Shown: positions 3,244 through 43,884, counted from the first letter of the stretch. The stretch is 64,000 bases of DNA from Verrucomicrobiia bacterium (GCA_035495615.1 DATJFP010000026.1:15635-79634); one strand, 5' to 3'. A program made the numbers and translations. Notes: generated by a model from the sequence alone, not told the origin.

Positions 3244-3311
3244 GATGACCTTGCCTATGGTTATCGGCCGGGAGGGATAAGGAGTGAAGACACCCTTTTG
3301 CATGGTAAATT

Positions 3312-18049: not shown

Positions 18050-19777
18050 TTATGCAGGGGGCGCCGACTCTTGTTTCAAGAGCTCGATAAACTCGTCGAG
18101 GCTTTTGACGCCCAGGTCGCGCCGGCCGCGGCCTCGCACAGCGACGCCACCGGAAGCGGCTTCCTTGTCGCCGATCACCGCGGCATACGGAATCTTCGAC
18201 GTTTCCGCCTCGCGGATCTTGTAGCCGATTTTTTCCGGCCGCAGGTCTTCTTCGACGCGAAAACCCGCGGCGCGCAATCTCGCCGCGGCATCCTTGGCCG
18301 CCTGTTCCTGTTTTTCTGAAATCGTCAGGATGCGTACCTGCACGGGCGCAAGCCACAGCGGAAATGCTCCGCCAAAATGTTCGATCAGGATTCCCAGGAA
18401 ACGCTCGATCGAGCCATAAATCGCGCGGTGCACCATGACCGGCCGCTTGCGCGACGCATCTTCGGCCACGTACTCCAGGTCGAAACGTTCCGGCATGGAA
18501 AAATCCACCTGGATCGTGCCGCACTGCCACGAGCGTCCCAGGCTGTCGTAAATCACGAACTCGATTTTCGGTCCGTAGAACGCGCCTTCCCCGTCGTGCA
18601 CTTCATACGGGATCTCGCGCTGTTCCAGAGCGCTCTTCAAGGCCTGCGTCGCCTTTTCCCAAATCTCGGAAGATCCAATGGCTTTTGCCGGCCGGGTCGA
18701 GACCGCGACTTCGTATTCGTTGAAACCGAACGCGGTATAGACTTCACGGATGAATTCGATCAGCGCGCCGATTTCGCTTTGAAGCTGGTCTTCGGTGCAA
18801 AAGTGATGCGCGTCGTCCTGCGTGAATGCCCGCACACGCATGAGACCGTGCGTAACCCCCGAACGCTCAAAACGGTGCACCTTGCCGAATTCCGCGATCC
18901 GCAGCGGCAGTTCGCGGTACGAATGCTGACGGCTTTTATAAATGAGCGCATGCCCCGGGCAGTTCATCGGCTTCACAGCATATTCCCGGTTCTCCGCCTT
19001 GGTGAAATACATGGCGTCGTGGAAATTGTCGTAATGCCCGCTTTTTTTCCAAAGATCGTCCGAGAGGACCATCGGGGCCTGGACTTCGTTGTAGCCCCGC
19101 ACGCGCAGCTTCTCGCGCATGAATCCGATCAAAGCGTTGAAAAGAAAAAAACCTTTGTCGTGAAAGAACACCATGGCCGGCGATTCGTCGTGGAAACTGA
19201 AAAGGTCCAGTTCCCGGCCGAGCTTGCGGTGGTCACGCTTCTGCGCTTCTTCCAGACGCTGCAGGTGCTCGTTCAGTTCTTTTTCCGAAAAAAACGCAGT
19301 CCCATAAATCCGCTGCAGCATCTTGTTCTGCTCGCTGCCGCGCCAGTACGCGCCGGCTACGGAAAGCAGCTTGAAGGCCTTCAGCTCATTCGTATTGTGG
19401 ATGTGATTGCCACGGCACAAATCCGTGAACGGTCCGTTCTTGACGAGCGTGATTTCGCCGTCATTGAGGTCCTTCAGGATTTCCAGTTTGTAAGGCTCCT
19501 GCCGCTCTTTGAAATACACTTCCGCATCTTTTTTGGAGATGGGATTCTGCTCAAAGGCCTGGCTTTCCCTGACAATCCTCGCCATTTCGACTTCAAGACG
19601 TTTCAGGTCATCGTCGGTGAACGGCTCGGCCCGGTCAAAATCGTAATAGAATCCGTCCTTGATGGCAGGACCGATCGTCAATTTTGATTCGGGGAATAAT
19701 TTCTGAACAGCTTGTGCCAGGATATGAGCAGCGGAGTGTCGCAGGCGGACAAGTGCTTCTGAATCGGATTTTTTCAT
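18050..19777 (-). CDS. thrS: threonine--tRNA ligase
   Basis: 575 aa class II aaRS with HRAIYGSIERF motif 3 and C-terminal anticodon-binding domain. Confidence 0.9.
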   Translation of the reverse strand: MKKSDSEALVRLRHSAAHILAQAVQKLFPESKLTIGPAIKDGFYYDFDRAEPFTDDDLKRLEVEMARIVRESQAFEQNPISKKDAEVYFKERQEPYKLEILKDLNDGEITLVKNGPFTDLCRGNHIHNTNELKAFKLLSVAGAYWRGSEQNKMLQRIYGTAFFSEKELNEHLQRLEEAQKRDHRKLGRELDLFSFHDESPAMVFFHDKGFFLFNALIGFMREKLRVRGYNEVQAPMVLSDDLWKKSGHYDNFHDAMYFTKAENREYAVKPMNCPGHALIYKSRQHSYRELPLRIAEFGKVHRFERSGVTHGLMRVRAFTQDDAHHFCTEDQLQSEIGALIEFIREVYTAFGFNEYEVAVSTRPAKAIGSSEIWEKATQALKSALEQREIPYEVHDGEGAFYGPKIEFVIYDSLGRSWQCGTIQVDFSMPERFDLEYVAEDASRKRPVMVHRAIYGSIERFLGILIEHFGGAFPLWLAPVQVRILTISEKQEQAAKDAAARLRAAGFRVEEDLRPEKIGYKIREAETSKIPYAAVIGDKEAASGGVAVRGRGRRDLGVKSLDEFIELLKQESAPPA

Positions 19778-19889
19778 TCCAAGGATTTACAATTGACTTA
19801 AGTGGCTCCCGCGTAAAAAGTTAGAGCGAATATCCTATCTAAAACCACGGGAATAGGCAAGTCTTTTCTTCGGGAGCCGCCGGTTGCGG

Positions 19890-19979
19890 TTATTTCGCAG
19901 AGCGGGCAACCTTCCGTTTGCGCTTAATGCGGGCCTTACGTCTCTGACGTTTGATCCGAACTTTGTGGTCGCGTCCCAT
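19890..19979 (-). CDS. small Arg/Lys-rich peptide (29 aa, MGRDHKVRIKRQRRKARIKRKRKVARSAK), possibly ribosome-associated
   Basis: Own translation. Strong RBS AAGGAGA 8 nt upstream of ATG. Sits between tRNA-Val and thrS on the same strand. Confidence 0.3.
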   Translation of the reverse strand: MGRDHKVRIKRQRRKARIKRKRKVARSAK

Positions 19980-20030
19980 GAATTCTCCTTTGTAACGTTA
20001 GAAACTGCTTCAGGATAGGCAAAAAAATTT

Positions 20031-20080
20031 GGGCGGTACAGGACTCGGTTCCGTCCGCTGCGCGGCCGGTAACCGCCCGC
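20031..20080 (-). pseudogene. tRNA-like remnant: acceptor stem plus degenerate T-arm of tRNA-Val fused to a short GC hairpin
   Basis: GGGCGGT...CCTGTACCGCCCA duplicates the 5' and 3' acceptor strands of the adjacent tRNA-Val. D and anticodon arms are replaced by CCGC-GCA-GCGG. Confidence 0.4.
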
Positions 20081-20149
20081 CCCAGCGACATGACCTCTGT
20101 CATGTCGCAAAACAGGGCTCCCTTCGAGGCCTGGTCTTTGGAAAAAATT

Positions 20150-20223
20150 TGGGCGGTACAGGACTCGAACCTGTGACCCCCACCATGTCAAGGTGATGCT
20201 CTAACCAACTGAGCTAACCGCCC
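20150..20223 (-). tRNA. tRNA-Val (anticodon GAC)
   Basis: Hand-folded: acceptor GGGCGGT/ACCGCCC, D-arm GCTCAGTTGGTTAGAGC, anticodon stem TCACC/GGTGG with loop TTGACAT, T-arm ACAGGTTCGAGTCCTGT. CCA not encoded. Confidence 0.8.
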
Positions 20224-20318
20224 AAAAACGGTAGGAAATAAAACCGAGGCTCTTCGGAAAGAACACCCACTATAAGCTTTACGCTTTTATTTTTCAATCA
20301 AATTTTCGGCCAAACCGT

Positions 20319-21386
20319 TCATAAGACCCGGACTTTTTTCATGGCGTCCTTGATGCGTCCAAGCCCTTCCTCGATCTGCTTCACGTCGAGCGCATAGCTC
20401 AAGCGGATGCGGTCCGGCGCACCGAACCATTCGCCAAGATACGTAATCACTTTGTACTCCTGATAAAGAATACTGAGAAACTCACGCGCGTTTTTGCATT
20501 TGGGCAGGATGTAAAAAGCGCCTTCCGGCCGCCAGAGGTCAAATCCCAGATCGCAGAAACCTTTGTAAATGAAATCGCGCCGTTCGCGCCACACCTGCTG
20601 CTGCTTGAGAATGTATTCCTTCGGCGCTTTCATCGCGGACAAGGCCATGTCCTGGCCCGTGAGGTTGGTGTTCATCGAGGTGTGCGTCTTCATCTCGCAG
20701 ACGTTTTCCACGATGGATTTGTCCGCGCTCCAAAGATAGCCGACACGCACGCCGCACATGGCATACGTTTTGGAAAACGAATTGACCGTGATGACGTGAT
20801 CGCCCTGCAGATGATAATTTTCACGTTCGTAGATGAGGTCTTTGTAGACTTCGTCCGAGACCACGTACACGCCGAGTTTCGCCGTGATTTTTTCGATCTC
20901 TTTCAGCGTCTCGATGTCTTCGACGCGCCCCGTGGGATTCGACGGCGAGTTGATCAGCACCGCGCGGCAGCCGTGGACCTTCTTTTTGAAGTCGTCGAGG
21001 TCGATGCGGCCGTCGATCAAGTCCGTGTAGACGGGCTCCATGTTCGCCAGCTCGATAATGGGCGGATAAGAATAATAGTAAGGCCGCGGCAGCAGCACTT
21101 TCCCGCCCTTCCCCCAGCCGCGGAAAATCAGGTCGAGCGCTTCGGACGCGCCGTTGGTGATCACGAAATTGTCCGCGCTCGATCCGGGATATTCTTTGCT
21201 GAGCGCCTCGCGCAGCTTCACCTCGCCCTGGATCAATCCATAGCGGAGGTCTTTGCGCGGGTCAATGTTTTCGAAGGCTTCTTTCGGCGGCGGCAGATCC
21301 GGCTGGCCGGAGCCGAAGCTGATCACGCCGTTGCCTTGCTTGCCAATGAAATCGGCCGGACTTTTTAATTTGAGTATCTGCGTCAT
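20319..21386 (-). CDS. pyridoxal phosphate-dependent aminotransferase (class I/II)
   Basis: 355 aa. SFSKTYAMCGVRVGY with PLP-lysine. NSPSNPTG motif. Confidence 0.8.
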   Translation of the reverse strand: MTQILKLKSPADFIGKQGNGVISFGSGQPDLPPPKEAFENIDPRKDLRYGLIQGEVKLREALSKEYPGSSADNFVITNGASEALDLIFRGWGKGGKVLLPRPYYYSYPPIIELANMEPVYTDLIDGRIDLDDFKKKVHGCRAVLINSPSNPTGRVEDIETLKEIEKITAKLGVYVVSDEVYKDLIYERENYHLQGDHVITVNSFSKTYAMCGVRVGYLWSADKSIVENVCEMKTHTSMNTNLTGQDMALSAMKAPKEYILKQQQVWRERRDFIYKGFCDLGFDLWRPEGAFYILPKCKNAREFLSILYQEYKVITYLGEWFGAPDRIRLSYALDVKQIEEGLGRIKDAMKKVRVL

Positions 21387-21475
21387 AAAATTCCTCGAAT
21401 AAATTAGGGCTATTGTATCGGAAAAGGAACGACAAACAAAGATCGGCTTGAGAAGGGTTCCTCTTTACAGGAAGG

Positions 21476-21835
21476 TCAGCCTAAAATCCATTTGCGCAAA
21501 AGGGCCAGAAACCCTTTACCTTGCGGCGCGGGTTCCTCGGCCGGATCTTCAGCGGCATCTTCGGGGACAAGTTCGGGGTGGGTTTGCTCGGGCATCTGGC
21601 TGCGCGCCAGGGTGGATTCCGCGAGAACGCGGTCCTCGAGACGGACGAAGACCTTGACGGTCCCCAGCAGCGGATTGATGCCTCCGATGCTGCCCATGCC
21701 GAAGAGATTTTGGACGTCCGCGTTTTTGATGTAGCAGGCAATGCCCGCTTCGTCCAAAACGGATTTGACGAGCTCCGCTCGCAGCGGGTCGCCGTCTTCG
21801 TAAATGAGATAGAATTCTTCTTTTTCTTTTTTCAT
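21476..21835 (-). CDS. DUF2007-domain protein (putative signal-transducing protein) with acidic Pro-rich tail
   Basis: Approx. 70 aa N-terminal domain pattern LDEAGIACYIKN...VFVRLEDRVLAE. Confidence 0.45.
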   Translation of the reverse strand: MKKEKEEFYLIYEDGDPLRAELVKSVLDEAGIACYIKNADVQNLFGMGSIGGINPLLGTVKVFVRLEDRVLAESTLARSQMPEQTHPELVPEDAAEDPAEEPAPQGKGFLALLRKWILG

Positions 21836-21853
21836 AGCGGGAACCGGGCCAGG

Positions 21854-22069
21854 CTACTTCTGGTGATAGTCGACGAGCCGTACGGTGGGATTCGGGAGTT
21901 CATCCCCGATGATGATGTTGTTTTCACGGGCCAGCCAGCCGAGCGCCATGTGGATGGTTTCCTTGGGCGCCTTGATGCCGGAAACGATGGCTTTGAATTT
22001 CGCCTCACCGTTGTGGCTTTCGAGGTATCTCCAGACTTCGCCGGCACAAAGGCCGATCCAGGTAATCAT
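21854..22069 (-). CDS. small winged-helix protein (DUF2582-like)
   Basis: 71 aa. ALGWLARENNI motif. Confidence 0.4.
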   Translation of the reverse strand: MITWIGLCAGEVWRYLESHNGEAKFKAIVSGIKAPKETIHMALGWLARENNIIIGDELPNPTVRLVDYHQK

Positions 22070-22127: not shown

Positions 22128-22739
22128 TCAGCGGCTTTTCTGCCATTCCGCGAAAAACTGCCGGACCCCCTCCAAAGCCTTGGCCCTGTGCGAAACCCGA
22201 TGCTTCATTTCCGGAGAAACCTGCCCGAATGTTTTCTGATAAGGCGGAAAATAAAAAATGGGATCGTAACCGAAACCGCCCGTGCCTGCGCGCTCGCGCG
22301 CGATGACACCGTGCACCTCACCTCGCACGGTGTTCAGCACCTTGCCGTTTTCTACGATAACGACCGCGGAAACATAGTAGGCGCTCCTGCAGTTATCGGG
22401 AAGATTGTGGAGCAGCCGGAGAAGCTTGTCGTTGTTATCCTCGTCACTTTTCCCCTCGCCTGCAAAGCGCGCGGAATAAACGCCGGGCGCGCCCTCGAGC
22501 GCGTCGCAGCACAAACCCGAATCCTCGGCGAGCGTCATGAGCCCGGACTGCGCTGCATATCCTAGCGCTTTCAGCGCCGCATTTTCCTCGAACGTGCGGC
22601 CGGTTTCCGGCACCTCCTGATAACTCGGCAGATCCTTCAGGCCGAGAAGCTGGAACGGCATGTCCTTGAGGAGCTCGCGGAGCTCTTCCAGTTTTTTCTT
22701 ATTCGTGCTCGCGACCAGGAGTTTCTGAGAGGAGTTCAT
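22128..22739 (-). CDS. rdgB: non-canonical purine NTP pyrophosphatase (dITP/XTP pyrophosphatase, RdgB/Ham1 family)
   Basis: [31 protein letters not shown] motifs. Confidence 0.85.
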
Positions 22740-36683: not shown

Positions 36684-37412
36684 TTAGGCGGGGACGGAAA
36701 TGGACGGAGGATCAATACGAAGACGATATCCCACGGCGGGCTCCGTGAGAATATAAATAGGACGCGCCGGGTCGGGCTCGAGTTTCTTGCGCAGGTTATA
36801 AATAACGACACGCAAAAGATGGTCCATCCGATGGACACTCTGATCATTATTCCAAACTTGTTTGTAGAGCTGCTCCGTTCTGACGATTTTACCCGCGCTC
36901 AAAACCAGGGCCTTCAGCACATCGTATTCCGTCGGCGTGAGATGCTGCGTGCGGTCCCCGACTTTGACGATACGCTGCTCGCCATCGAAAACAAGTTCGC
37001 CGGTCTTGAAAATCGGAGTTCCGCCTTTCGGCAGCCAGCGGCGCATGAGCGCTCGAACGCGGGCTAGAAACTCCGAAGGGCTGAAGGGCTTGGTGACATA
37101 GTCGTCGGCGCCTGCGTCAAGCGCCGCCACTTTATCCGCTTCGTCTCCGCGGACCGAGAGAATCATGATGGGTGTAGCCGCGCGCTGGCGTATCTCTCTG
37201 GCCACCTCGACTCCGCTGATATCGGGCAGTTTCAAATCCAGAATAATCGCATCAGGATGCGCTTTTACCGCGGCTTTCAAAGCCGCGCGGCCGTTAGCCG
37301 CTTCAAAGGTGCGGTACCCCTGGGATTGGAGCATTCTTTTGAGAACGCGCCTCAGCGGACGTTCGTCATCCACGATCAAAATACGCACCCCGTCTTTTTT
37401 AGGCCTAAGCAT
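36684..37412 (-). CDS. OmpR-family response regulator, KdpE-like (pair 1)
   Basis: Receiver domain (ILIVDDE...DLKLPD...DYVTKPF) plus winged-helix output (LTPTEYDVL, GYRL). Confidence 0.8.
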   Translation of the reverse strand: MLRPKKDGVRILIVDDERPLRRVLKRMLQSQGYRTFEAANGRAALKAAVKAHPDAIILDLKLPDISGVEVAREIRQRAATPIMILSVRGDEADKVAALDAGADDYVTKPFSPSEFLARVRALMRRWLPKGGTPIFKTGELVFDGEQRIVKVGDRTQHLTPTEYDVLKALVLSAGKIVRTEQLYKQVWNNDQSVHRMDHLLRVVIYNLRKKLEPDPARPIYILTEPAVGYRLRIDPPSISVPA

Positions 37413-38541
37413 GGGGCTTCTCGATGCAAAAAGGCAATTCCACAATCATTTTCGTCCCCTTTTCCGGCAGATTTTCGGCCCAGATTTTTCCTTGGTGCGC
37501 CTCAACAATTCCTTGGCAAATCGAGAGGCCGAGACCTGTACCCGGAATTTTCTGCGTTCGTTCACCGCGGTAGAACTTATCAAAGATACGATGCAATTCC
37601 CGTTCCGGAATGCCCGGGCCCTCGTCAGAAATTTCAATACGGACGCTTTGCATCGAGGTTTTGATCTCGAGCAAAACCAAAGAACCCCTGGGCGAATACT
37701 TCAGGGCATTGTCGATCACATTGACTAAGACTTTCAGCATCAGGTCGTAGTCGACGCAGGCTTCCGGGAGCTCATCCGGAAGAAGGACGCGCACACGATA
37801 TCCTTCCTCCCCCCGGGATAACTGCTGCAATGCCACTCCGATGAGATCGCTTAAGTCGCATGGTTTCCGGGTCAGCTCTAAAATGCCTCCCTCGACCTTG
37901 GTCATGTCCAATAAATTTTCAACGAGCTGACTGAGTCTCCCCGCCTCCGCGTTGGCTGTCGTAATGAGCTGCCGGCGGGAGGATTCATCCAGGTCCATGT
38001 TGTGGTGCATCAGATTCCCCAGGGCCGCAGTGATCGAGGACAACGGCGTTTTTAGATCATGAGAGATCGAGTTCAACAAAGTTGAATACAGTTTCTCCTT
38101 CTCCCGCAAAAGCTCCATCTGCTGAGTTTTCATGAGGCTGCGTCGGAGGCGCGTCGTCAAAGTGCTGATCGTGATTCCTACAATCAAGAATCCGGCCAGG
38201 GTGACGAAATCGTGCTGACTGAATGTGGCGAAGCTGAATTGCGGCGGGATGAAAAGGTAATCAAAAGCCAGCACGCTGGCGATCGAAGAGGCGATTGCGG
38301 GGCCACGGCCCCATTTGAGCGCAATAATTACGACCCCTAAGAGATAAAAAATAATGAGGTCGGTTGTGATCAGAAAGGCTTTGGCATAGGCAATCCAACC
38401 CGCAAGAAAAGCCGCTGCCACCAACATCAGGCTCAGGATATATGGCATGACGCGATCGGTTTTTTTTCCACCCCACTTCATGGTCATGAGAGCCCCTACG
38501 GATCGATAATTGTATCGAACGTCAGGGAAAGAAAATATCAA
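37405..38541 (-). CDS. sensor histidine kinase, KdpD C-terminal type (4-TM + HisKA + HATPase only)
   Basis: TM block LAFDYLFIPPQFSFATFSQHDFVTLAGFLIVG matches the KdpD membrane domain. LLNSISHDLKTPL H-box. No N-terminal KdpD/Usp domain and no GAF linker. Confidence 0.8.
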   Translation of the reverse strand: MIFSFPDVRYNYRSVGALMTMKWGGKKTDRVMPYILSLMLVAAAFLAGWIAYAKAFLITTDLIIFYLLGVVIIALKWGRGPAIASSIASVLAFDYLFIPPQFSFATFSQHDFVTLAGFLIVGITISTLTTRLRRSLMKTQQMELLREKEKLYSTLLNSISHDLKTPLSSITAALGNLMHHNMDLDESSRRQLITTANAEAGRLSQLVENLLDMTKVEGGILELTRKPCDLSDLIGVALQQLSRGEEGYRVRVLLPDELPEACVDYDLMLKVLVNVIDNALKYSPRGSLVLLEIKTSMQSVRIEISDEGPGIPERELHRIFDKFYRGERTQKIPGTGLGLSICQGIVEAHQGKIWAENLPEKGTKMIVELPFCIEKPHA

Positions 38542-38654: not shown

Positions 38655-39728
38655 ATGCAGAGACAAGACTCGCCGATCAAATATCATTTTATCTGGCACG
38701 GTTATGCCCAGAGCCTTCTCATGGTGGTTCTGGTCACGCTTGGCGGGGAACTACTCAAGCGCACGATCGAGCCCATCAACCTTATCATGTTCTATCTTTT
38801 GGCCGTGATCGTCGCGGGCATCCGCTGGGGCCACGGCCCCGCTGTCCTGACTTCCGTTCTGAGCGTGCTTGCCTTTGATTTTTTTCTCATCCCTCCCTAT
38901 CTGACTTTCGGCGTCGAAGATTTCCAGTACGTCTTTACCTTCGCGGGTTTTCTCATTGTAGGTCTGATCACAAGCGAACTGATGACAAAAACAAAGGAGC
39001 AGGCGCGCAAAGCGCGGCAATTGGAACTGCTTCGAGCGACAAAAAAACTGCAGACAGCGCTCCTCAATTCAGTCTCGCACGACTTGCGCACGCCGCTGGC
39101 TTCGATCATCGGATCCATCAGCATGCTCCTGCAAGACGAGCCTTCCCTCGCCGAAGAAACCATAAAGGGGCTGCTCCGGGACGCCTATGGGGAATCGCTG
39201 CGCTTGAATCGCTTGGTCGGGAACCTCCTCGACATGACGCGGCTTGAAGCCGGCGCTCTGAATCTTTCTTTTAAATCCTGCGATTTAAGAGACGTGCTCG
39301 GCGTGGCTTTGCAGGAGCTCGCCGACAAATTGGAGCAGCGCCGAATTAAAACCCAGATCCCTCACGACCTCCCGGAAATCAGCGCGGACTTTTCTTTGAT
39401 CATGAAGGTGCTCGTGAATTTAATCGATAATGCGGCGAAATATTCGTCTGAGGACACACCGATCCGCATTGCCGCCAAAACGCAGGGCGACCGGATTAAA
39501 ATTGAAATCATGGACGAGGGAATTGGAATTGCCCCCAAAGACTTGAAACCTATCTTCGACAAATTTTACCGCGCTTCCCATCCGTCGACGGTCGAGGGTC
39601 TCGGGCTTGGGCTCTCGATAGCGAAAGGAATCGTGGAGGCGCATCATGGCGAAATCTGGGCGGAAAGCGGCGCGGGAAAAGGGACGACATTCGTCGTGCT
39701 TTTGCCTTACTCCAAGGAGACCGCATGA
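38655..39728 (+). CDS. sensor histidine kinase, KdpD C-terminal type (pair 2, paralog of 37405-38541)
   Basis: LAFDFFLIPPYLTFGVEDFQYVFTFAGFLIVG TM block. LLNSVSHDLRTPL H-box. About 50% identical to the divergent paralog. Confidence 0.8.
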   Translation: MQRQDSPIKYHFIWHGYAQSLLMVVLVTLGGELLKRTIEPINLIMFYLLAVIVAGIRWGHGPAVLTSVLSVLAFDFFLIPPYLTFGVEDFQYVFTFAGFLIVGLITSELMTKTKEQARKARQLELLRATKKLQTALLNSVSHDLRTPLASIIGSISMLLQDEPSLAEETIKGLLRDAYGESLRLNRLVGNLLDMTRLEAGALNLSFKSCDLRDVLGVALQELADKLEQRRIKTQIPHDLPEISADFSLIMKVLVNLIDNAAKYSSEDTPIRIAAKTQGDRIKIEIMDEGIGIAPKDLKPIFDKFYRASHPSTVEGLGLGLSIAKGIVEAHHGEIWAESGAGKGTTFVVLLPYSKETA

Positions 39729-40504: not shown

Positions 40505-40514
40505 TTGCATAGAT

Positions 40515-40695
40515 CGAACAAGCCGAATCCGGATGACGGATCGGGGGACCCAGAGAAGGCTCCGGAGCTCGATGCTTCGGGGCGATAAGCAGCTCGAAAC
40601 TTGGTGTTTTTAGCTATCGGGGCGAATCACTGCAAAGTGAAAGGTTTCCACTCGACCTTAGCCCGACAGCTAACCCCGTAGGCGAAACGGAGAGA
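40515..40695 (+). promoter_or_regulatory. c-di-AMP riboswitch (ydaO/kimA class) in leader of ptsN-like/kimA operon
   Basis: GAAUCCGGAUGACGGAUCGGGGGACCCAG ... GGGGCGAAUC ... GUUUCCACUC ... AGCCCGACAGCUAACCCCGUAGGCGAAACGGAGAG. Conserved blocks remembered from the ydaO motif (GAAUC, ACGG..GGGGGACCCA, GGGGxGAAUC, CCCGAAGG-GCAA-like 3' end). Confidence 0.75.
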
Positions 40696-40796
40696 ACTGT
40701 GCACCGCATTTTCGAACCGCGCTTTTCAATCCTTTCCGTTTCCCCTGGTTTCACCGCCGAAGCGTTCCGCGCAGACGGGCTTTCAAGGAGGACGCC

Positions 40797-43685: not shown

Positions 43686-43736
43686 CTCGTTTTTGACTCG
43701 TCCAATGCCCTCTCCCCGAGTATTTTGTCACGATTA

Positions 43737-43880
43737 ACGACAAGCCGAATCCCGACAGGGATCGGGGGACCCGATAAAGCGGCTCTCAAAGTTTTGAGCC
43801 ATGGGCGAATCCGCCGGAGCGCGGAGAGGTTTCCACTCAACCTCAGCCCGTCAGCTAACCCCGAAGGCGCAACGGAGAGG
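43737..43880 (+). promoter_or_regulatory. c-di-AMP riboswitch (ydaO/kimA class), second copy, abutting the kimA2 start codon
   Basis: ACAAGCCGAAUCCCGACAGGGAUCGGGGGACCCGA ... GGGCGAAUCC ... GUUUCCACUC ... AGCCCGUCAGCUAACCCCGAAGGCGCAACGGAGAGG. Co-linear with the first copy. The conserved 3' AACGGAGAGG contains the RBS for ATG at 43885. Confidence 0.75.
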
Positions 43881-43884
43881 TGTT

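Follow-up and report, generated by a model that had tools for sequence, protein, structure and literature searches.

RtT repeats and the RttR small RNA (Rfam RF00391) of the E. coli tyrT-tyrV operon have been described previously (Bosl and Kersten 1991, as cited in PMC3318445), and, according to a preprint, RtT takes part in tyrT transcript processing and probably modulates the stringent response (bioRxiv 10.1101/2024.07.17.603846). In the E. coli K-12 genome (NC_000913), the last 19 nt of tRNA-Tyr together with the trailer recur once in the tyrT-tyrV interval and three times downstream of tyrV, with a period of 178 nt (3.1 copies with 95% matches according to TRF), and each unit matches the Rfam RtT model, of which four copies were found in this control. 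The annotation lists the first of these units as the small RNA RttR (171 nt), within which lies tpr, a protamine-like ORF of 29 aa. In the predicted fold of RttR, the tRNA-derived segment AAUCCUUCCCC pairs with the upstream segment GGGGAAGGAU and closes a multi-hairpin domain, and CACCACCA is left free. RtT has so far stood as an isolated enterobacterial case. A small RNA is also derived from the 3' external transcribed spacer of a tRNA in the case of E. coli 3'ETS-leuZ, and RNAs of this type are short, Hfq-bound sponges. Acceptor/T-arm minihelices and hairpin substrates of RNase P include the tRNA-like domain of tmRNA and the 4.5S RNA precursor. Finally, tyrosine integrases that target tRNA genes leave attL/attR duplications, and this also applies to integrase-less cis-mobilizable relics.

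Here, we analysed a 64,000-nt stretch of DNA, referred to as the window, in which the 3' end of a tRNA-Val(GAC) gene and its trailer recur downstream of the gene. We propose with moderate confidence, and by analogy with RtT, that the repeat is the end of a conserved, structured, non-coding element of approximately 130 nt that trails tRNA-Val in some members of the Omnitrophota, is RtT-like, was born by duplication and is probably released by tRNA-end processing. Both the RtT unit and the Omnitrophota element lie in a tRNA trailer and run from within the T-arm region through the trailer to an exact copy of the tRNA 3' end and trailer. Tandem repetition is seen in both (in Omnitrophota, 2.0 x 118 nt in the relative L081 and 1.2 copies in the window), the tRNA-derived 3' segment is predicted to pair upstream and thereby close a structured domain (window, the relative L100 and RttR), and a 29-aa basic ORF is found nearby in E. 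coli and in the window. However, the E. coli repeat involves tRNA-Tyr and a 178-nt unit, whereas tRNA-Val and a unit of 118-120 nt are involved in Omnitrophota, a different phylum. In the closing stem, the Omnitrophota element would pair the acceptor 3' strand with the tRNA's own first 9 nt, whereas RtT pairs the T-stem and acceptor 3' strand, and the basic ORF lies inside the unit in E. coli but outside the repeat, where it is independently conserved, in Omnitrophota. Neither at the gathering threshold nor at E<=10 did the Rfam RtT model match the window. The element is of RtT-like architecture and not a member of the RtT family; moreover, RtT is known as a released RNA, whereas release of the Omnitrophota element is putative.

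The element shares with 3'ETS-leuZ the (here putative) excision of a functional RNA from the trailer of a tRNA operon by the tRNA processing machinery, but the 3'ETS RNAs do not carry a tRNA-end mimic. As in the minihelices and RNase P substrates, a non-tRNA insert is closed by an acceptor-like stem of 7 bp that carries a discriminator base and, in the relatives L002 and L100, a CCA end; on the other hand, the Omnitrophota mimic has at most a degenerate T-arm and is not recognised by the Rfam tRNA model, and cleavage is putative. With att duplications it has in common a direct repeat of a tRNA 3' segment that reaches from within a tRNA loop to beyond the 3' end, but it differs from these by the absence of an integrase, the presence of the 5' acceptor strand, a conserved covarying interior and a species-specific repeat extent.

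Architecture of the tRNA-Val trailer

On the minus strand of the window, a promoter is followed by tRNA-Val(GAC), a U-rich trailer (AAUUUUUU), a conserved box (GCCUCGAAGGGAGC), the P2 hairpin, a 49-nt tRNA-like segment, hereafter mini-tRNA, AA-U7, a 29-aa basic ORF and the thrS-infC-rpmI-rplT genes (Table 1). The repeat is an exact 26-mer, AAAAAATTTGGGCGGTACAGGACTCG, of which the window holds two copies spaced 120 nt apart and separated by a non-coding gap of 94 bp; no third copy was found at up to three mismatches, and zero matches are expected from 100 shuffles. A promoter resembling that of the window (TTGAAA-17-TAAATT) is found at the equivalent position in the relative L088, and the tRNA-Val of the window is 100% identical to that of the closest relative.

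The mini-tRNA is composed of the first 9 nt of the tRNA (GGGCGGTTA; also written GGGCGGUUA), a GC-rich hairpin (P4) and the last 18 nt of the tRNA, so that the first 9 nt of the tRNA form a second direct repeat family. A sequence-only reading of this locus had recognised the tRNA-Val, the pseudo-tRNA, the trailer-including repeat and the palindrome between its copies, and this description is right; the repeat itself is exact and above chance when compared with shuffled sequence. Its details need adjustment: the repeated trailer comprises 8 nt and not 9 nt, the remnant is 49 nt and not 50 nt long, the copies lie 94 bp and not approximately 95 bp apart, and the palindrome, placed at 20085-20107, has two 10-bp arms and reaches to 20108. 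That reading had also noted the acceptor portion within the remnant, without pointing out the second direct repeat.

Table 1. Features of the tRNA-Val locus in the window and corresponding features in related loci (handles beginning with L).
Feature	Coordinates	Strand	Remarks
Sigma-70-like promoter, TTGAAA-17-TATAGT	20269..20297	-	Upstream of tRNA-Val; sole promoter-like site in 19700-20500
tRNA-Val(GAC), 74 nt	20150..20223 (Rfam); 20149-20224 (ARAGORN)	-	CCA not encoded
Direct repeat copy 1	20142..20167	-	Last 18 nt of tRNA (T-loop CGAGU to discriminator A) and 8-nt trailer AAUUUUUU
Conserved box GCCUCGAAGGGAGC, core CUC-GAAGG-GAG	20117..20130	-	Nearly invariant in four species
P2 bulged hairpin	20079..20118	-	Predicted folds and covariation
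P2 outer stem	20113-20118 with 20079-20084	-	
P2 UUUU bulge	20109-20112	-	
P2 inner stem, 10-bp palindrome, loop AGAG	20099-20108 with 20085-20094	-	
Mini-tRNA, 49 nt	20030..20078	-	Discriminator A at 20030
P3 acceptor-stem mimic, 7 bp	20072-20078 with 20031-20037	-	Encloses P4 and degenerate T-loop segment 20038-20047
P4 GC-rich hairpin, CCG-G-CCGC[GCA]GCGG-A-CGG	20051..20069	-	Predicted folds
Direct repeat copy 2	20022..20047	-	3' end of mini-tRNA and copy of tRNA trailer
U7 tract	20021..20027	-	3 nt past P3 stem
29-aa Lys/Arg-rich ORF, MGRDHKVRIKRQRRKARIKRKRKVARSAK	19890-19979	-	Shine-Dalgarno AAAGGAG at 19985-19991; starts 50 nt after mini-tRNA
thrS	18050..19777	-	Followed by infC, rpmI, rplT
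Basic ORF in relatives	L001 2860-2949, L002 2800-2889, L081 473-562, L085 3850-3939, L090 64-177, L099 4883-4972		
tRNA-Val in relatives	L001 2577-2653, L087 100-175, L089 1-37, L091 642-718, L103 98-174		Loci behind the observations on orientation and HSP20

The T-loop of tRNA-Val and the 3' strand of its T-stem have a complement in the 5' part of the box, with 12 of 12 positions agreeing in L081 and 10 of 12 in the window, and the box could, as far as complementarity suggests, pair with tRNA-Val or with the acceptor mimic as a pseudoknot. As the T-arm is nearly palindromic, a direct and an inverted origin of the box from the T-arm are indistinguishable. The U7 tract could bring about partial termination or be a U-rich, single-stranded site of cleavage. 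The mini-tRNA is not recognised as a tRNA: ARAGORN calls only the full tRNA-Val, and the Rfam tRNA model has no match in 19880-20160 at E<=10. Only chance-level matches were obtained with Rfam at permissive thresholds on the window, L100 and L002, and no family of Rfam 15 fits the element.

Two other readings of the spacer were discarded. A version of the hairpin hp1 with a 4-bp outer stem was dropped because this outer stem pairs poorly in L002 and L100, whereas the outer stem of P2 pairs and covaries in all four species. A 55-aa ORF starting from an ATG within the palindrome was rejected as a coding interpretation because the equivalent frame stops after two codons in L002.

The window pre-tRNA-Val also has a peculiarity of its own. 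The UUU of its leader pairs with the AAA of its trailer (20217-20226 with 20148-20157), and it resembles an intrinsic terminator because this pairing gives a 10-bp acceptor stem directly before U6. The extension is not kept in L081.

Distribution and covariation in Omnitrophota

Related loci were found with thrS as an anchor. The window ThrS protein, which stands in NCBI under a 'Verrucomicrobiae' MAG label and is P0001 in the protein search, though its exact sequence is missing from the contig index, falls within Candidatus Omnitrophota; its nearest homologue, P0002, is 82% identical and the next group 73-77%. A neighbour-joining tree of ThrS sequences contains four groups: clade A (the window and P0002), its sister clade B (P0003, P0005, P0008 and P0019), clade C (P0010 and relatives) and a fourth group, clade D. 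The element follows tRNA-Val in three further Omnitrophota species, namely the P0002 species (L081/L088/L082), L002 and L100, and the clade C cases were found with a script that searched for second copies of tRNA 3' ends near the 48 tRNAs of the fetched loci.

In L081, an ENA contig of the P0002 species, tRNA-Val is followed by a spacer and a mini-tRNA as in the window, then by a second spacer and a second mini-tRNA, which is cut short after GACGGA. TRF assigns a 118-nt period with 2.0 copies and 99% matches to this array, and 1.2 copies of the unit are present in the window. Independent contigs confirm both ends of the L081 array: L088 covers the left side (rdgB, tRNA and first unit) and L082 the right junction. 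The junction GACGGAACCGAGUCC (GACGGAAC joined to CGAGUCC) is identical in the window and L081, and the duplication is therefore older than the split of these two species. The 118-nt repeat interrupts independent metagenome assemblies of the P0002 species, in that L088 ends at position 3296 and L082 and L083 start inside the repeat; loci with such a tandem repeat will be under-represented or truncated in short-read assemblies.

The two more distant relatives, L002 and L100 of clade C, have a larger domain that is closed by an equivalent acceptor-mimic stem. In L002, a tRNA-Val with an encoded CCA is followed by the box CUCGAAGGGAG, a P2 core (ACAUGAC...GUCAUGU) and a domain that ends with GUCCUGUACCGCCCACCA. 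In L100, the box CUCGACGGGAG and P2 are followed by GGGCGGCUACC, approximately 150 nt with more hairpins, GUACCGCCCACCA and then a copy of this species' own tRNA trailer, CUUUC[C/A]AUUUCU. A REP-like hairpin (GCACTTGAACC-N4/5-GTTCAAGTGC) is found inside the expanded element of L100 (228-251) and upstream of tRNA-Val in L099 (4696-4720), which suggests a small dispersed repeat in the clade of L099 and L100.

The element is absent from the examined members of clade B (L001, L085, L091) and clade D (L087, L089, L090) and from part of clade C (L099, L101, L103, L104). Due to this patchy distribution, with the sister clade B and several members of clade C lacking it, the element is dispensable. A search of the window and 31 loci with a covariance model (R1) composed of the box, P2 and the P3 5' strand gave no copies beyond the known ones, and a metagenome scan for the mini-tRNA junction returned one contig only, from an already-known species. 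Among other tRNA-Val loci, L104 (clade C) carries the 3' half of a tRNA-Val(UAC) at the start of the contig (1-48), where others have tRNA-Val(GAC). An independent case was seen in an 'Ignavibacteria' MAG with a ThrS that is 52% identical (L073, 2191-2440), in which a pseudo-tRNA-Val lies 109 nt after tRNA-Val(GAC). There, a 9-bp GC hairpin with an AUA triloop replaces the anticodon arm, the spacer segment AUACUGGGAUC pairs with the 3' half of the pseudo-tRNA's T-arm, and short CAGTATA-type repeats come next, approximately 400 nt upstream of thrS.

Between the window and L081, identity is 100% for the tRNA, 92% for the mini-tRNA and 74% for the spacer, compared with 74.5% for thrS DNA, 71% for the small ORF and 48% and 57% for two other intergenic stretches. 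Between clades with only 75% identity of the ThrS proteins, the box hardly varies. Across the four species, the sequences show that the box, P2, the predicted P3-closed domain around P4 and, at its end, the exact copy of the tRNA 3' end are kept. For P2 and hp1, 95% of the cells of the four-species alignment are paired and five pairs have changed on both sides; the covariation score of 0.269 compares with 0.122 in shuffled alignments (0 of 500 as high) and at most 0.077 in controls with slid partners, statistics that are thin because only four species from two clades contribute. The outer stem of P2 reads GCCCUG/UGGGGC, GCCUUG/UAAGGC, GCACCU/AGGUGC and GCAUCUG/UAGAUGC in the four species, and the three outer pairs of the inner stem are also altered on both sides. 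In segments chosen by hand, the apical stem of P4 differs in all four species and always pairs (CCGC/GCGG, CCGU/ACGG, CGGC/GCCG and GUCC/GGAC), with a GCA or GAA triloop.

P3 cannot covary, since its 3' strand is tied to the tRNA sequence. The predicted minimum-energy folds contain the P3 closing stem in the window and L100, and the mini-tRNA takes other pairings in those of L081 and L002. Whether the 3' copy carries a CCA follows the species' own tRNA (none in the window and L081, present in L002 and L100), and the species-specific trailer is also copied in three of the four, namely the window, L081 and L100, whereas L002 copies the tRNA 3' end only. The exact identity of the 3' copy could stem from gene conversion by the adjacent tRNA rather than from selection.

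Gene neighbourhood

A basic ORF is conserved upstream of thrS in the Omnitrophota relatives, with or without the trailer element. It encodes 29-37 aa (MGRD[HW]K.R.KR.RR...), has a strong Shine-Dalgarno sequence and is located between tRNA-Val and thrS in all Omnitrophota relatives that were examined. No Pfam or NCBIfam match was obtained for the 29-aa product. We take its composition to recall the tiny ribosomal proteins eL41 or bS22, and it may be an unannotated ribosome-associated protein. No promoter-like site was detected between tRNA-Val and the 29-aa ORF in a scan of the window, and in L090 and L099 tRNA-Val and the ribosome-binding site of the ORF are only approximately 40 nt apart, a spacing that implies co-transcription of the tRNA and the ORF.

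The surroundings of tRNA-Val differ between species. In the window, genes for a DUF2582 winged-helix protein, a DUF2007 protein and a class I/II aminotransferase (20319-22069, minus strand) lie between rdgB/Ham1 (22128-22739) and tRNA-Val; rdgB directly adjoins tRNA-Val in L088, L085, L001, L099 and L101. The genes at 20319-22069 are a local insertion or rearrangement 5' of tRNA-Val with no repeat signature. In several relatives tRNA-Val is inverted relative to thrS, and in others (L087, L100-L104) an HSP20 gene lies between the tRNA and the small ORF (Table 1). The intergenic neighbourhood of tRNA-Val and thrS rearranges often. Elsewhere in the window, Rfam identifies two c-di-AMP (ydaO-type) riboswitches with scores above the gathering threshold (40511-40699 and 43733-43884, both on the plus strand), near two DUF4118/HisKA histidine kinase genes (37405-38541 and 38655-39728).

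Origin and possible role of the element

The headline of the sequence-only reading, that the repeat is the scar of a tRNA-targeting integrase, is not supported, as relatives, structure and gene content are all contrary to it, whereas the tandem slip that it offered as a fallback is supported by comparative data such as the 118-nt tandem repeat of L081. The scar hypothesis would have a tyrosine-integrase element enter the T-loop region of tRNA-Val and later shrink to a remnant of approximately 94 bp between attL and attR, similar to the relic of a cis-mobilizable element. The direct repeat indeed begins in the T-loop and extends past the tRNA 3' end, the ACGGA that precedes the distal copy bears a weak similarity to ACAGG of the 5' T-stem strand, as expected of a core-type inverted repeat, some relatives have an 'empty' site, and phages use tRNA-Val 3' halves as att sites. 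We nevertheless consider this origin very improbable. The reading had itself named an unvarying arrangement in related genomes, or a remnant that belongs to a longer structured leader, as counter-evidence, and such counter-evidence was found: the arrangement is kept in L081/L088/L082, L002 and L100 with no integrated element between the repeats, and the remnant proved to be part of a longer conserved structured element with compensatory changes, the DNA between the repeats being a covarying hairpin set. In all four species, the element neither contains nor adjoins an integrase or other mobile gene, and none is listed in the gene tables of the relatives. In the window, the repeat is accompanied by aminotransferase, DUF2007, DUF2582, Ham1 and thrS genes, and a Pfam scan of 24 ORFs, none of which lies between the repeats, revealed no integrase, with no Phage_integrase match in the 20 of them scanned beyond the neighbourhood. 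The distal copy contains the 5' acceptor strand (the first 9 nt of the tRNA) and an inner GC hairpin, whereas an att duplication is a bare 3' fragment. Five viral contigs (L092-L095 and L097) served as a positive control; their tRNA-Val(TAC) fragments extend without interruption from the anticodon loop to the 3' end and directly adjoin a tyrosine integrase in both of the two contigs checked; these att fragments have neither the 5' acceptor strand nor the GC hairpin of the window's distal copy. The box-P2 motif is absent from 2.9 million viral contigs. In addition, the L081 array is a plain 118-nt tandem repeat whose last unit has no att-like end, and the limits of the repeat are species-specific with each copy matching the trailer of its own host, which argues for duplication in place and not for a shared attP. 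The repeat is thus most likely not an integrase scar, and a false lead has most likely been removed, namely that of a lost mobile element at the tRNA-Val locus.

From the repeat structure we infer that the element originated by partial tandem duplication, in which the duplicated unit would have comprised the tRNA from the T-loop through the trailer together with the downstream spacer. The main rival of the RtT-like interpretation accepts this origin and denies a function: the tRNA-Val 3' region and spacer would have been partly duplicated by slippage or unequal crossing-over, and gene conversion would have homogenised the parts identical to the tRNA. Copy number and end point of the array do vary (1.2 units in the window and 2.0 in L081), many relatives lack the element, L100 tolerates an insert of approximately 150 nt with a REP-like hairpin that also occurs elsewhere in L099, and the pseudo-tRNA-Val of the unrelated 'Ignavibacteria' MAG, being an independent copy, indicates that such duplications arise readily. 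We still regard a functionless relic as unlikely, since it offers no account of the compensatory substitutions by which P2 and P4 change. Parts that do not derive from the tRNA are conserved well above other intergenic DNA, the box is near-invariant across clades with 75% ThrS identity, and the 9-nt 5' strand and P4 are out of reach of gene conversion. A mainly transcriptional role, with the acceptor mimic and U tract as a second intrinsic terminator or attenuator that insulates the basic ORF and the thrS operon from the strong tRNA promoter, seems improbable to us as well. AAA-U7 comes after the GC-rich 7-bp stem in the window and G-U6 in L081, tRNA-Val itself ends alike in the window with its 10-bp extended stem directly before U6, and T runs follow tRNA-Val in L085, L099 and L002. 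However, a terminator scan of 19700-20500 (GC-rich hairpin with a U tract within 0-2 nt) gave no sites, because the 3-nt spacer AAA parts the stem from U7, and the mimics of L002 and L100 have no U tract; termination can therefore not be the conserved role, and it would also leave the conservation of the box and P2 unexplained. The lack of a detectable separate promoter for the ORF can be read either way: it is in line with such a role, but efficient termination would then silence the ORF. Weak or partial termination may nevertheless occur at the mimic and U7 in the window. A thrS operator or T-box was rejected, as an anticodon arm is missing from the mimic, a promoter-like site for thrS itself follows the small ORF, and a convergent gene lies between the element and thrS in L002.

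For the RtT-like element, we envisage that it would be co-transcribed with tRNA-Val from the promoter upstream of the tRNA and, because its 3' end repeats the tRNA 3' processing signal, would be released by the tRNA-trimming nucleases as a discrete, folded trailer RNA. RNase P may cut at the G+1 of the mimic, and release of the trailer RNA would also give the small-ORF mRNA a defined 5' end. In the window, some of the strong transcription of the tRNA may also be terminated at the P3 stem with AAA-U7, ahead of the basic ORF and thrS. Processing and release are proposed by analogy with the RtT units of the E. coli tyrT operon. More tentatively, and as a suggestion we hold to be possible but doubtful, the element could represent an undescribed Omnitrophota family of tRNA-trailer small RNAs that are matured via a mimic of the tRNA-Val end and in which the box and P2 have a regulatory or tRNA-linked function.

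Taken together, this work adds a candidate structured RNA motif without an Rfam 15 family from a poorly studied, uncultured phylum. In the RtT design, a tRNA gene gives rise to an adjacent small RNA through a copy of the gene's own 3' end and processing signal, and the Omnitrophota element, if it is processed and stable, would be a second, independent instance of it. A convergent RtT-like case would make this design, and its link to tRNA maturation and translation-gene operons, testable by comparison. If true, the element would, along with E. coli RtT, point to the duplication of tRNA 3' ends as a recurrent bacterial route to new processed RNAs.
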